From a plasmid: a DNA stretch of 64,000 nt. Where the stretch lies: NCBI RefSeq assembly GCF_058153355.1, contig NZ_JBLWLY010000002.1; one strand, 5' to 3'. The notes under the pieces are model-generated. The model made no database searches. It was not told the DNA's origin and saw only the letters and a list, made by a program, of their open reading frames with translations. Shown here one piece after another: positions 36,861 to 42,040 of this stretch (position 1 is its first letter; the number at the start of each line of letters is the position of its first letter). Made by a program: the position numbers and the translations under genes.

Positions 36861-37079
36861 ATGAAGCAGCGCATTACAGTCACCGTCGACAGTGACAGCT
36901 ATCAGTTGCTCAAGGCATATGATGTCAATATCTCCGGTCTGGTAAGCACCACCATGCAGAATGAAGCCCGTCGTCTGCGTGCCGAACGCTGGAAAGCAGA
37001 AAATCAGGAAGGGATGGCTGAGGTCGCCCGGTTTATTGAAATGAACGGCTCTTTTGCCGACGAGAACAGGGACTGGTGA
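36861..37079 (+). CDS. ccdA: CcdA antitoxin
   Basis: [72 protein letters not shown] matches F-plasmid CcdA. Confidence 0.95.
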
Positions 37080-37080
37080 A

Positions 37081-37386
37081 ATGCAGTTTAAGGTTTACAC
37101 CTATAAAAGAGAGAGCCGTTATCGTCTGTTTGTGGATGTACAGAGTGACATTATTGACACGCCCGGGCGACGGATGGTGATCCCCCTAGCCAGCGCCCGC
37201 CTGCTGTCAGATAAAGTCTCCCGTGAGCTTTACCCGGTGGTGCATGTCGGGGATGAAAGCTGGCGCATGATGACCACCGATATGGCCAGTGTGCCGGTCT
37301 CCGTCATTGGGGAAGAAGTGGCCGATCTCAGCCACCGCGAAAATGACATCAAAAACGCCATTAACCTGATGTTCTGGGGAATATAA
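37081..37386 (+). CDS. ccdB: CcdB toxin (gyrase poison)
   Basis: [55 protein letters not shown].. matches F-plasmid CcdB. Confidence 0.95.
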
Positions 37387-38091
37387 ATGTCAGGCTCCGT
37401 TATACACAGCCAGTCTGCAGTCATGGTACCGGCAGTGTATTCTGCCGGACAGCCTGCATCGCTGCCTGTTGCCATTGATTATCCGGCTGCGCTGGCACTC
37501 CGCCAGATGTCGATGGTTCATGATGAACTGCCAAAATACCTGCTCGCCCCTGAAGTGAGTGCCCTGCTCCATTACGTCCCGGATCTGCGCCGCAAGATGC
37601 TGCTGGCCACTCTGAAGCAGCGGACAGAAAAAGCTGCCAGGACGGCAGGAAGAATGCCCGCCGGTCAGCAGACTCACCGGCTGGTTCCGCTCTCCGACTC
37701 CTGGTACGTCAGCCAGCTGCAGACGATGGTGGCCACACTGAAAATCCCCATGGAACGGCGTAATAAACGAACAGGCAAGAAAGCGCGGCTCTGGGAAGTG
37801 ACGGACAGAACGGTCAGGACCTGGATTGGGGAGGCGGTTGCCGCCGCTGCCGCTGATGGTGTGACGTTCTCTGTCCCGGTCACGCCACATACGTTCCGCC
37901 ATTCCTATGCGATGCACATGCTGTATGCCGGTATACCGCTGAAGGTCCTGCAGAGCCTGATGGGGCATAAGTCCATCAGCTCAACGGAGGTCTACACGAA
38001 GGTGTTTGCACTGGATGTGGCTGCACGGCACCGGGTGCAGTTTGCGATGCCTGAAGTGGATGCGGTAGCCATGCTGAAAGGGAATATTTAA
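37387..38091 (+). CDS. resD: ResD-like tyrosine site-specific recombinase (plasmid multimer resolvase)
   Basis: Position as in F (ccdAB-resD); C-terminal motifs HTFRHSYAMHML and LMGHKSISSTEVYTKV typical of tyrosine recombinases. Confidence 0.8.
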   Translation: MSGSVIHSQSAVMVPAVYSAGQPASLPVAIDYPAALALRQMSMVHDELPKYLLAPEVSALLHYVPDLRRKMLLATLKQRTEKAARTAGRMPAGQQTHRLVPLSDSWYVSQLQTMVATLKIPMERRNKRTGKKARLWEVTDRTVRTWIGEAVAAAAADGVTFSVPVTPHTFRHSYAMHMLYAGIPLKVLQSLMGHKSISSTEVYTKVFALDVAARHRVQFAMPEVDAVAMLKGNI

Positions 38092-38346
38092 GTAATTAGG
38101 AGAATGATGCTGGCGAACGTCCAGCTCGCCGATGAGGTCTGCTGAATTCAAATTGCTTAGTGAAATGTCTGGATATGCCGCATTTTACCCAGTGCGGCGT
38201 ACTTTTGGTTACGGATATGATCGAGCCAGCAGTGCTCGCCGCAGCCGAGCGACAGGGCGAAGCCCCGAGTGAGCGAGGAAGCACCAGGGAACAGTACTTA
38301 TATATTCCGCTTACGCTCTATGCCTGAAAAATCTCCTTACCTAGGG

Positions 38347-38362
38347 GTTATCCACTTATCCA
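38347..38362. promoter_or_regulatory. Tandem DnaA boxes (TTATCCAC T TATCCAC) followed by an AT-rich unwinding region
   Basis: Sequence and position relative to the iterons and repE, as in F ori2. Confidence 0.7.
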
Positions 38363-38457
38363 CCTGGTTATTTTTATAAGATCTTTTTTTATAGTTGTTA
38401 GATCTTTATTTTTAGAATGCCCGCAGGCCTTTATCCATGCGGGTTCCAGAGGGGGAA

Positions 38458-38555
38458 GTGTGACAAACCGCCCTTTCAGTGTGACAAATCACCCTCAAAT
38501 AGCAGTCCTTTCTGTGACAAATCACCCTTAACCCTGTGACAAATTGCCCTCAGAT
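38458..38555 (+). repeat. ori2-type iterons (4 direct repeats of TGTGACAAAT.RCCCT)
   Basis: Four roughly 19-bp direct repeats upstream of repE; an inverted half-iteron operator lies at about 38608-38634. Confidence 0.85.
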
Positions 38556-38648
38556 GGCGTTGCTTTTCACAAAGTTATCCATCCCTGTTGACTCTGTTTT
38601 ATGAAGTGTGACAATCTGAAAATCTGTCACACTTCACATGGGCCTGTC

Positions 38649-39404
38649 ATGGCGGAAATAGCGGTTATAAACCATAAAAAACGTAAAAATAGCCCGCGGA
38701 TTGTCCAGTCAAATGAGCTGACTGAGGCGGCATATAGTCTTTCTAGGGATCAAAAGCGTATGCTGTATCTGTTCGTTGACCAGATCAGAAAATCCGACGG
38801 TTCCCTGCAAGAACCTGATGGCATCTGCGAAATTCACGTTGCTAAATACGCTGAAACATTCGGGCTAACCTCCGCTGAAGCCAGTAAGGATATTCGACAG
38901 GCTTTAAAAGGTTTTGCGGGTAAGGAAGTGGTTTTCTATCGCCCTGAAGAGGATGCCGGTGATGAAAAAGGGTATGAATCCTTTCCTTGGTTTATCAAAC
39001 GTGCGCACAGTCCATCCAGAGGGATTTACAGTGTACATATAAACCCATATCCCATTCCCTTTTTCATCGGGCTACAAAACCGGTTTACGCAGTTCCGGCT
39101 CAGTGAAACAAAAGAGATTACCAATCCGTATGCCATGCGTTTATACGAATCCCTGTGTCAGTACCGTAAACCTGATGGCTCAGGTGTCGTGTCCCTGAAA
39201 ATCGACTGGATCATGGAGCGCTACCAGCTACCTCAAAGTTACCAACGTATGCCGGATTTTCGCCGGCGTTTCCTGCAGGCAAGTGTTGATGAGATCAATA
39301 GCCGGACACCAATGCGCCTCTCTTACATCGAGAAAAAGAAAGGCCGCCAGACGACTCATATCGTATTTTCCTTCCGTGATATTACCTCGATGACAACAGA
39401 ATAG
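38649..39404 (+). CDS. repE: RepFIA replication initiator RepE (251 aa)
   Basis: [51 protein letters not shown].. matches F RepE. Confidence 0.95.
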
Positions 39405-40240: not shown

Positions 40241-40250
40241 AGGAGGCTAA

Positions 40251-40883
40251 ATGGCCTGGATAGTTGGTTTTATTTCCCAGAAAGGTGGTGTGGGTAAAAG
40301 CACTAAAGCGAGAGCGTTAGCGCGTGAAGCATCCGCCTGTGGCATCAAAACAAAATTAGCTGATCTCGACTTGGAACAGGCAACGAGTGCTGAGTGGCAT
40401 CGTCGACGTCTGTCAGCTGGTTTGCCACCGGTTGCTTCAGTTGAAGTGTCTTCAACAGCAAAGCAGGCGATAGAATCTGCCGGCGATTTTGACCTTCTGA
40501 TTCTTGATGGCCCAGCTCGTGCAAGCAAAGGGACTTCAGAAATTGCTAAGGTCGCCGACCTTATCGTCCAGCCAACGGGGGCCTCCCTTGACGATCTTGT
40601 CCCGGCCATTAAAGTTTTCAACGCGCTGGTAAAAGAAGGTGTACCACGTTCAAAACTGGTCTTTGCTTTAAGCCGGGTAGGTACCGAAGCGGAAGAGCTG
40701 GATGCTCGTGCATATATCAGTGAAGCAGGTTATGAAACTTTATCTGGATGCCTTTTTGAGAAGCCAGCATACAGAAAAGCGATGAATTCAGGACTCGCAG
40801 TGACAGAAACACGTTATAAAGGTTTAAACGAGAGAGCTGATGAACTTATCCAAGCACTCATCGATAAGATTGGAGAAGAGTAA
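40251..40883 (+). CDS. parA: Small ParA/ParF-type (type Ib) partition ATPase (210 aa)
   Basis: Walker A KGGVGKST near the N-terminus, no N-terminal HTH domain. Confidence 0.8.
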   Translation: MAWIVGFISQKGGVGKSTKARALAREASACGIKTKLADLDLEQATSAEWHRRRLSAGLPPVASVEVSSTAKQAIESAGDFDLLILDGPARASKGTSEIAKVADLIVQPTGASLDDLVPAIKVFNALVKEGVPRSKLVFALSRVGTEAEELDARAYISEAGYETLSGCLFEKPAYRKAMNSGLAVTETRYKGLNERADELIQALIDKIGEE

Positions 40884-41257
40884 TGGCTGATGCATCAAAA
40901 CTTAAAACTAAAAGGACCCGTGGTGGGCTGGGGGTACCCCCGGGCCCCGACGAAGTGGCTACCAGCCTGAATGCGCCTGAAATAGCTCCGGCTGTCGCTG
41001 CCACTGATGTTCAGAGACAACAGGCAGACTCATCGCCAGTGCACCATGAGCCTGTGGTTACGCAAACAGTGACCGAGGCATATACCCGCCGCGATGGCCG
41101 TTCTGCCAGAAAGACAAACAGGACGCTGGCATTTGCAACACGTGTCACACCTGCTTTCGACCAAGAGATCCGGGATATCGCAGAGCGTGAGGGGTTGAAA
41201 CTGGTGGAAGTTCTGGAAAAAGCAGTTGAGGCATATAAGGAAAAACAGGGCTATTAA
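40883..41257 (+). CDS. Small partition adaptor protein (ParG/ParB-like, predicted C-terminal RHH), 124 aa
   Basis: Start overlaps the parA stop; C-terminal ..RTLAFATRVTPAFDQEIRDIAEREGLKLVEVLEKAVEAY is RHH-like. Confidence 0.55.
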   Translation: MADASKLKTKRTRGGLGVPPGPDEVATSLNAPEIAPAVAATDVQRQQADSSPVHHEPVVTQTVTEAYTRRDGRSARKTNRTLAFATRVTPAFDQEIRDIAEREGLKLVEVLEKAVEAYKEKQGY

Positions 41258-41264
41258 TCCGGGA

Positions 41265-41347
41265 TGCAGCAATCTTGCTGCATTCTTTTTTTTGTGCAAT
41301 CTTGCAGCAAGAATCATGCTAGATAAATGCTAGATTGCTGCAAGATA
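41265..41347. repeat. Second cluster of ATCTTGCTGCA-type repeats downstream of the type Ib par genes
   Basis: Three further copies of the same motif. Confidence 0.6.
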
Positions 41348-41357
41348 AATGATATGG

Positions 41358-41482
41358 TACTCAAATTGAGTAGTTAACTGCCCCCGTGAAGTACGCAGTT
41401 TGAGTACTTACCTGTGGTTTATGAACGTATTTACTTAATGTGAGTAGTTATTGGGCGAAGATGAACACTCAAATTGAGTATA
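41358..41482. repeat. parC-like iterons (TTGAGTA core, 4 copies) upstream of stbA/parM
   Basis: CTCAAATTGAGTA-type repeats spanning the promoter region and start of the actin-like ATPase gene. Confidence 0.5.
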
Positions 41483-41494
41483 AATGGAGATGGT

Positions 41495-42040
41495 ATGAAA
41501 ATTTTTTGCGATGATGGTTCTACAAATGTGAAACTTGCCTGGTTTGAAGGCAAGACGCTGAAAAGTGCGGTATCAGTGAACTCTTTTCGCCATAACTGGA
41601 AAGTCGAGGGCTTAGGCAGCAGTCGTACCTATAACTATCTGCTTGATGGCCGTAAATATACCTACGACCCGGTCAGCGAAGATGCGATCAGCACGACTCA
41701 TATTGAGTATCAGTACTCTGATACAAATGTGTTGGCAGTTCACCACGCATTACTGAACAGTGGAATTGAACCCCAGGAGATCGATCTCACCGTTACGTTA
41801 CCTATCAGCGAGTTTTACACGGCCGACTGCCAGAAAAATACGCTTAACATTGAGAGAAAAATTCGCAACCTGATGCGGGAAGTCACCCTGAACAAAGGGG
41901 GAACTTTTACCATTAAAAGCGTTGAAGTGATGCCTGAATCACTCCCGGCTGTATTTACTCGCCTAGTTGCTGACAATGTTGGTCAGTACGAAAAATCATT
42001 GGTTATCGATCTCGGTGGTACAACTCTGGATGTTAACTGC
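41495..42040 (+). pseudogene. stbA: Actin-like partition ATPase StbA/ParM (type II), 3'-truncated
   Basis: MKIFCDDGSTNVKLAW..NVLAVHHALL..ERKIRNLMREVTLNKGGTFTIKSVEVMPESLPA..IDLGGTTLD resembles R1 ParM; homology is lost where the adjacent IS fragment begins. Confidence 0.75.

Follow-up and report, generated by a model that had tools for sequence, protein, structure and literature searches.

The partition region of an F-like plasmid was analyzed in a stretch of 64,000 nucleotides (NCBI RefSeq assembly GCF_058153355.1, contig NZ_JBLWLY010000002.1), which as a whole is called the window here. The region is most likely an F-type (RepFIA) maintenance block in which a tandem double partition module fills the slot of the partition genes sopABC. 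Of its two units, the first is an intact type Ib system, i.e., a small ParA ATPase encoded together with a ParB-like adaptor of the predicted ribbon-helix-helix (RHH) class, and the second unit is a dead ParMRC system resembling par1 of pB171. The ParA/adaptor pair is a common, uncharacterised type Ib (RHH-ParB) cassette, and belongs to a known kind of system and not to a new kind. Positions 38080–42200 were read directly and open reading frames (ORFs) were listed for 34–46 kb. The comparison with pB171 was made through pMAR2, the carrier of a pB171-type double par locus.

ParA and the Putative RHH Adaptor

The parA gene (40251–40883, plus strand) codes for a deviant Walker-A ATPase of 210 amino acids with the motif KGGVGKS at residues 11–17. 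The protein has no N-terminal DNA-binding domain, as is found for the small Walker ATPases of type Ib systems, and it matched Pfam CbiA (1.5e-7) as well as the PDB entries for ParF (4dzz) and TP228 ParA (5u1g), both at an E-value of 1e-6. Moreover, it is 99.5% identical to plasmid genes annotated as 'ParA family protein'. Directly downstream lies the gene for a ParB-like adaptor of 124 amino acids (40883–41257, plus strand), the start codon of which overlaps the stop codon of parA by 1 nt, as in a translationally coupled pair.

Searches with the adaptor against Pfam, NCBIfam and PHROGs returned no match, and nothing meaningful was found in the PDB either by sequence or by profile. Alignment of 21 relatives (alignment A1) resolved the protein into a conserved N-terminal motif of about 36 residues (MADxSKLK..LGxPPGPDEVATSLNAPEIAP), a variable linker, a basic arm (RRDGRSARKTNRT) and a conserved C-terminus with the consensus LAFATRVTPEFDxEIRDIAEREGLKLVEVLExALEAYK. 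In the AlphaFold2 (AF2) model of the monomer, an extended segment is followed by two helices at residues 90–103 and 107–122, with a predicted local distance difference test (pLDDT) score of about 83. When the last 58 residues were modeled as a linked dimer, the extended segments paired via beta-bridges and the core reached a pLDDT of 70–82. Foldseek searches with the monomer returned nearly exclusively RHH proteins (CopG, CdbA, Arc, SvtR and ParG), and those with the linked dimer returned single-chain Arc (probability 0.92), TraY and Arc (template modeling score 0.82). The C-terminus of the adaptor is predicted from these models to adopt the ribbon-helix-helix fold that is typical of type Ib adaptors.

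The adaptor has a wide family. A profile search with alignment A1 recovered 482 clusters at 50% identity (E ≤ 1e-3), which span from enterobacteria to plasmids of Xanthomonas, Pseudomonas, Arsenophonus and Rickettsia. Of the distant relatives sampled, Pfam RHH_10 was matched by one at E ≤ 1e-3 and by three at E ≤ 0.1. A relative from a metagenome is a fusion of 306 amino acids in which a ParA-like N-terminus is joined to the RHH domain; it supports a functional link of ParA with the adaptor family, and it could be an artefact of gene calling. Two further relatives carry tandemly duplicated RHH domains (the fusion and these two are P0242, P0214 and P0245).

Repeat Arrays and the Proposed Mechanism

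The parA-adaptor operon (parAB in the following) is flanked by two arrays of putative ParB-type sites. The upstream array (39966–40238) comprises six exact ATCTTGC/GCAAGAT heptads and seven matches to the 12-mer TTGCWGCAAGAT, and the downstream array (41261–41346) comprises three exact heptads plus variants. With one mismatch allowed, the 12-mer occurs 12 times in the 64 kb, as compared to 1.08 occurrences expected, and none of 100 shuffled sequences reached this number. An earlier note on the window, made from its letters alone, had placed such repeats on both sides of the ATPase/adaptor pair, which is borne out by the finding that 11 of the 12 matches fall at 39969–40228 and 41272–41346. Similarly, 9 of the 12 copies of the heptad in the window lie in the flanking 416 bp, where 0.08 would be expected; the repeats are enriched about 100-fold on both sides of parAB, in the manner of a type Ib repeat array. 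The 12-mer proposed by the earlier note as the repeat unit is therefore real and enriched, but the sites are better described as palindromic TGCWGCA cores with ATCT/AGAT linkers between them, which together form imperfect palindromes of 15–18 bp. A candidate 15-bp duplex for the adaptor site is ATCTTGCWGCAAGAT.

Some of these sites may have a second role, as judged from their position. A consensus scan identified a promoter-like sequence for parAB (TTTACC-16 nt-TATATT, 40184–40211, plus strand, 9 of 12 positions), and between its -10 hexamer and the ribosome-binding site stands an operator-like palindrome (40216–40238). pCoo and the relatives from Enterobacter, Salmonella and Leclercia have a corresponding palindrome immediately next to the ribosome-binding site, and in those from Pseudomonas and Xanthomonas it is modified. 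On the other side of the operon, the first downstream palindrome together with a run of T forms a terminator-like site (41261–41286).

The heptads also flank homologues whose adaptors share 55–68% identity with that of the window, and in relatives with about 50% adaptor identity (Xanthomonas and Pseudomonas) the sites shift to GCTAGAT/TAGCAGC. Judged from these sequences, a shift that accompanies the divergence of the adaptor is what a cognate binding site would be expected to show. Where the tandem module is intact, no more than about 10 bp separate the end of the downstream array from the ParR boxes of the second unit.

By analogy with ParF/ParG, pB171 par2, delta/omega and pESBL (PMC7602700), we infer a type Ib mechanism for the pair. 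Following this, we propose that adaptor dimers would insert their beta-ribbon into the TGCWGCA cores at 39966–40238 and 41261–41346 and that occupation of both arrays would create partition complexes on either side of the operon. ParA-ATP dimers would bind the nucleoid, and the flexible, conserved N-terminal motif of the adaptor may contact ParA and stimulate its ATPase, by which plasmid copies would be spaced along the nucleoid and the plasmid would be stabilised. By binding to the promoter-proximal palindrome at 40216–40238, the adaptor would, in addition, repress its own operon.

Several points weigh against this interpretation. ParA scored 96 bits on the NCBIfam model NF041546 (ParA_partition), which is under the cut-off of 180, and the mean pLDDT of the full-length adaptor model was just 64. 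The E-values of the Foldseek matches were weak (0.13 or worse), which is due to the tiny size of the domain (about 45 residues). Furthermore, the parAB promoter call is a weak consensus match, and the first downstream palindrome may serve as a terminator and nothing else. Lastly, no experimental study of the adaptor family was found in the literature searched, including searches for the site sequence and for descriptions of IncFIA par loci, which is not proof of absence.

Going beyond the assignment to type Ib, the adaptor might found an as yet unnamed family of RHH centromere-binding proteins of considerable size, characterized by an unusually long conserved N-terminal motif for contact with ParA and by palindromic TGCWGCA cores, and in the intact module both systems could share a composite centromere/operator and cross-regulate each other, as in pB171 with another partner and another geometry. 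We put this forward tentatively and regard it as possible but rather doubtful.

Comparison with Known Partition Systems and Alternative Explanations

Since the pair occupies the position of sopABC after incC, it might be a diverged sopAB (type Ia), or else an orthologue of pB171 par2, and in either case already characterized. Indeed, its neighborhood is that of par2 in pMAR2, with ccd and resD upstream and a par1-like parMR downstream, and in both plasmids a type Ib and a type II unit stand side by side and adjoin ccdAB-resD. The likeness extends to ParM (66–68% identity), ParR (46%) and ResD (82%) and to the common parC box core CTCAnnTTGAG. However, a type Ia system comprises SopA of about 388 amino acids with a regulatory domain at its N-terminus, a SopB of the ParB/helix-turn-helix (HTH) type and the 43-bp repeats of sopC, and these were not found here: the identity between ParA and SopA was 33% over 57 residues only, and the adaptor had no match to SopB of F, in agreement with the expectation of the earlier note that the pair would not prove a known variant of sopAB. 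As for pB171, the comparison suggested by the same note held for the type II half, which is closely related to par1, but not for the type Ib half, which is not par2. The pB171-type ParA (214 amino acids) is 28.8% identical to ParA of the window, the pB171-type ParB (91 amino acids) has no detectable similarity to the 124-residue adaptor, the pB171-type units are divergent whereas those of the window are in tandem, and the intergenic repeats of pMAR2 lack the ATCTTGC heptad. At the level of sequence, an identity with sopAB or par2 is already refuted, and we consider it extremely improbable.

It is also unlikely, if less so, that the ParA-like ATPase and the RHH regulator serve another role, such as conjugative transfer or global regulation of plasmid genes, with the repeats acting as operators and terminators only. 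Some type I partition proteins are reported to regulate transfer genes (PMC12421886), and there are global regulators among the RHH ParBs, e.g., omega (PMC3235114); the terminator-like first downstream palindrome and the presence of one site over the likely transcript start would also fit. Against this stands the fact that the sites are almost entirely confined to the flanks of the operon, both in the window and in the relatives, and that the cassette travels with several replicon types, including non-mobilizable plasmids. Moreover, the two-sided arrays match a known layout of type Ib centromeres (PMC7602700). A slightly smaller probability still is assigned to the idea that the cassette is an inert remnant, like parM and resD, and that segregation is ensured by the parABS operon at 23.5 kb (see below) and by systems outside the window. 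The decayed surroundings, namely the truncated parM, the deletion in resD and the dense insertion sequences (ISs), speak for this idea, whereas both proteins are full length and nearly or fully identical to the copies of other plasmids (99.5% for ParA and 100% for ParB), and the promoter-like site, the ribosome-binding site and both arrays are intact. In addition, about 330 PLSDB plasmids have an intact and near-identical copy of the cassette, which argues for purifying selection. An intact type Ib partition system is the preferred reading of the pair.

In its general design, this type Ib pair is similar to ParF/ParG-parH of TP228, delta/omega of pSM19035 and the IncI1 system of pESBL: all combine a small Walker ATPase with a small dimeric RHH adaptor (in the window a predicted one) that has a flexible N-terminal tail, and all have arrays of short repeats upstream and downstream, which probably serve as operators, too. 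In contrast, the adaptors of those systems show no sequence similarity to the 124-residue adaptor, and the TGCWGCA/ATCT units of the window differ from the GATAACAA octamers of pESBL. The sites of other type Ib systems, e.g., ACTC boxes and WATCACW heptads, are likewise unlike TGCWGCA/ATCT. Some individual candidates were examined as the same system and rejected. The IncI1 pESBL system differs in its adaptor (100 amino acids) and in its site (GATAACAA). For parABC of the IncP-6 plasmid Rms149, ParA aligned with 28% identity over 113 residues and the ParG-like ParB reached an hhalign probability of 0.5%, i.e., it is not of the same family. Other type Ib systems (L012 and L013) had ParA proteins with about 33–35% identity and unrelated adaptors.

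The Type II Remnant

Downstream of the second array follows a parC-like region (41357–41480) with four ParR-type boxes, ACTCAAATTGAGTA (repeat families D4 and D15), the core of which is kept in pCoo, Salmonella, Providencia and the pB171-type plasmid pMAR2. Next to it lies a remnant of parM (41495–42033, plus strand) with 179 of 324 codons, of which the product is 68% identical to ParM of pMAR2. The parM gene begins at 41495, as annotated for its relatives, rather than at the TTG codon at 41474. The remnant matched PHROG 691 at 1.7e-37, and a full-length ParM relative matched structures of R1 ParM at an E-value of 2e-81. Homology to intact relatives stops at 42033; the missing part of parM and the parR gene were not found anywhere in the 64-kb window. 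The decayed type II system reported in the earlier note is accordingly confirmed: of a ParMRC system as in pB171 par1 or R1, only the parC boxes and a partial parM are present, and the unit is a remnant that is dead in this plasmid.

The earlier note had attributed the truncation of parM to an IS. The gene does end at an IS junction, but the adjoining IS is itself truncated. This IS3-family element (42034–43203, minus strand; transposase ORFs at 42697–43203 and 41996–42721) is, from 42034 on, 99.7% identical to annotated IS3-family transposase genes; the transposase gene is 176 nt longer in pAMSC2, and the copy of the window also lacks the end of the element. Since the element itself is cut, the junction is read as a deletion scar and not as a simple insertion. 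The parM/IS3 junction was present in no record of PLSDB or of RefSeq E. coli. An IS66-family element comes next after the truncated IS3-family element (42034–45660 for the two).

Distribution of the Module and a Slot for Partition Systems

The tandem arrangement parA-parB-parM-parR is intact in p1B2 and pCoo, and the four-gene unit was also found in Salmonella contigs (62% adaptor identity) and in Providencia (55%). Its recurrence in pCoo, Salmonella and Providencia identifies it as a conserved module. The layout of the block as a whole is common among the enterobacterial plasmids that have been sequenced. In pCoo and the IncFIA-type plasmids of E. coli, Klebsiella and Salmonella, the DNA of the module is 92–98% identical to that of the window, the difference being that parM and parR are intact there. 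Only the type Ib pair is present in the relatives from Enterobacter, Leclercia, Xanthomonas, Pseudomonas and Arsenophonus, and those from Pseudomonas and Xanthomonas carry downstream a gene of the 'ParC family' or a zeta toxin gene, not parMR. As determined by tblastn, the adaptor is encoded by 460 PLSDB plasmids, 324 of them at an identity of at least 95%, and the incC-parA junction was covered to at least 80% in at least 139 PLSDB records.

A par cassette in place of sopABC was claimed in the earlier note, and this stands, given that homology to F stops before sopA; it is, in a refined form, one view of a modular slot. In pCoo and the pB171-type plasmid pMAR2, the par module follows directly after resD with no repE in between. 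The region after ccd-resD(-rep) behaves as a slot for partition modules, which is taken by sopABC in F, by divergent par2/par1 in pB171-type plasmids and by the tandem type Ib/type II module here.

The F-Like Maintenance Block

All components of the F-like block listed in the earlier note, namely ccdA, ccdB, resD, the DnaA boxes, the ori2 iterons, repE and five incC iterons, were found in the arrangement of F. The antitoxin gene ccdA (36861–37079, plus strand, 72 amino acids) and the gyrase toxin gene ccdB (37081–37386, plus strand, 101 amino acids) together make up an addiction system and encode proteins that are 100% and 99% identical to CcdA and CcdB of F, respectively. The replicon proper includes two overlapping DnaA boxes, TTATCCACT and TTATCCACC (38348–38364, plus strand), each with one mismatch from TTATCCACA, and a pattern search located four ori2 iterons (38460–38552, plus strand) and five incC iterons in the opposite orientation (39407–39593, minus strand). 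The iteron pattern GTGACAAATYRCCCTCA with up to three mismatches matched 10 times in the window, as compared to 0.59 expected, and 0 of 100 shuffles reached 10. The repE gene (38649–39404, plus strand, 251 amino acids) scored 524.9 bits on the NCBIfam RepE equivalog NF010305 (cut-off 342), and RepE is 94.8% identical to that of F. With RepE, the four origin iterons, the five inverted incC iterons and the DnaA boxes, the replicon is of the RepFIA (F ori2/RepE) type. Upstream of repE, direct reading of the sequence revealed inverted half-iterons, GAAGTGTGACA...TGTCACACTTC (38603–38635); they lie at the position of the repE operator of F, and presumably have the same operator role, as assumed from the known autoregulation of F RepE. 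A search of Rfam over 35500–43500 gave no match.

Compared by blastn to an F locus that spanned sopA, sopB and the DNA past sopB in which sopC is located, the window showed collinear homology at 36818–39799 only, ending about 170 bp upstream of the position equivalent to F sopA. Order and sequence are common to F and the window over the stretch that begins with ccdA and extends about 200 bp beyond incC, the DnaA boxes and the 4 + 5 iterons included; the differences are that the resD-ori2 segment is about 216 bp shorter in the window and that sopABC is absent and type Ib parAB plus parMRC stand in its stead. The basic replicon (ori2-repE-incC) is bracketed by an inverted repeat, the left arm of which (38230–38282) matches the reverse complement of the right arm (39746–39800); the right arm is the last F-homologous stretch, where the blastn alignment ends at 39799. 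We assume that these arms may be similar to ColE1-type primosome assembly sites, cf. the pas sites of mini-F. In pCoo, 38069–39688, i.e., the left arm and the replicon, are missing, and homology restarts just before the right arm. Directly past the end of F homology lies a palindrome or hairpin (39823–39865) with arms of 18 nt, CAGCATGATAGCTGCAAT...ATTGCTTCTATCATGCTG, and with a core similar to GCTGCAA; it may be a terminator or an adaptor site outside the arrays.

The resD gene (37387–38091, plus strand), which codes for a tyrosine recombinase that serves in multimer resolution, occupies the same position as in F, but contrary to the earlier note's picture of an F-like arrangement it is not intact. 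BLASTP against F ResD gave 85% identity (226 of 265 residues) with gaps of 32 and 2 residues, which corresponds to an in-frame deletion of 34 codons, and the larger gap represents the loss of WNTGARINEALALTRGDFSLAPPYPFVQLATL, located between the direct repeats LLATL and QLATL. In F, p1B2, pCoo and pMAR2, resD is full length. Matches of the window ResD to NCBIfam families of the XerD/XerC type were limited to its C-terminal part. The lost stretch carries the first catalytic arginine (GARINE motif) of tyrosine recombinases. Since the deletion takes out this residue, the recombinase is, as judged from the sequence, probably inactive.

The Third Partition System and the Surrounding Plasmid

A further partition operon (23496–25417) encodes a ParA-like protein of 296 amino acids and a ParB of 343 amino acids, the latter with 77 bits on TIGR00180 (cut-off 58.45). 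The 16-bp palindrome ATTTCGCATGCGAAAT is present four times around and inside this operon (23272–23287, 23489–23504, 25190–25205 and 26183–26198), and these copies look like parS sites; the operon is a ParABS system of type I with an HTH-ParB. One copy of the palindrome overlaps the first ATG of the parA ORF, and the true start may lie downstream. The count of three partition systems of different classes in the window, made in the earlier note, is upheld, with type Ib, type II (broken) and type I HTH-ParB. Such a number is not unusual, since 745 PLSDB plasmids carry three partition systems (PMC13245405); RHH-ParB and type II systems are combined in 971 PLSDB plasmids (PMC13245405).

Directly upstream of the 23.5-kb operon, two small overlapping ORFs (22444–23009; 83 and 105 amino acids) resemble an antitoxin/toxin pair by eye. 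The region 515–32768 contains genes of the invasion plasmids of Shigella and enteroinvasive E. coli, namely an icsP/ompT-like gene, ospD3, ospC1, two ipaH genes and virF, along with many ISs. The best DNA matches for the surroundings were to pINV of S. sonnei, at 37% coverage. The FIA/type Ib block is thus part of a pINV-like plasmid, one that is absent from the collections searched.

Implications

For the plasmid of the window, the results suggest that replication, ccd and the type Ib system are the only FIA-linked functions still intact. Hundreds of IncFIA-type plasmids with clinical relevance carry the cassette itself; they come from E. coli, Klebsiella and Salmonella, and both virulence and resistance plasmids are among them. 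Because its adaptor is annotated just as 'hypothetical protein', surveys that rely on homology to ParB may record the system as an incomplete one. Besides pB171, the tandem module provides a second natural case in which a type Ib unit is coupled to ParMRC of the par1 type, and it is useful for studies of cross-talk between partition systems. Plasmid annotation and the prediction of partition-based incompatibility would benefit from a definition of the adaptor family and of its binding site.

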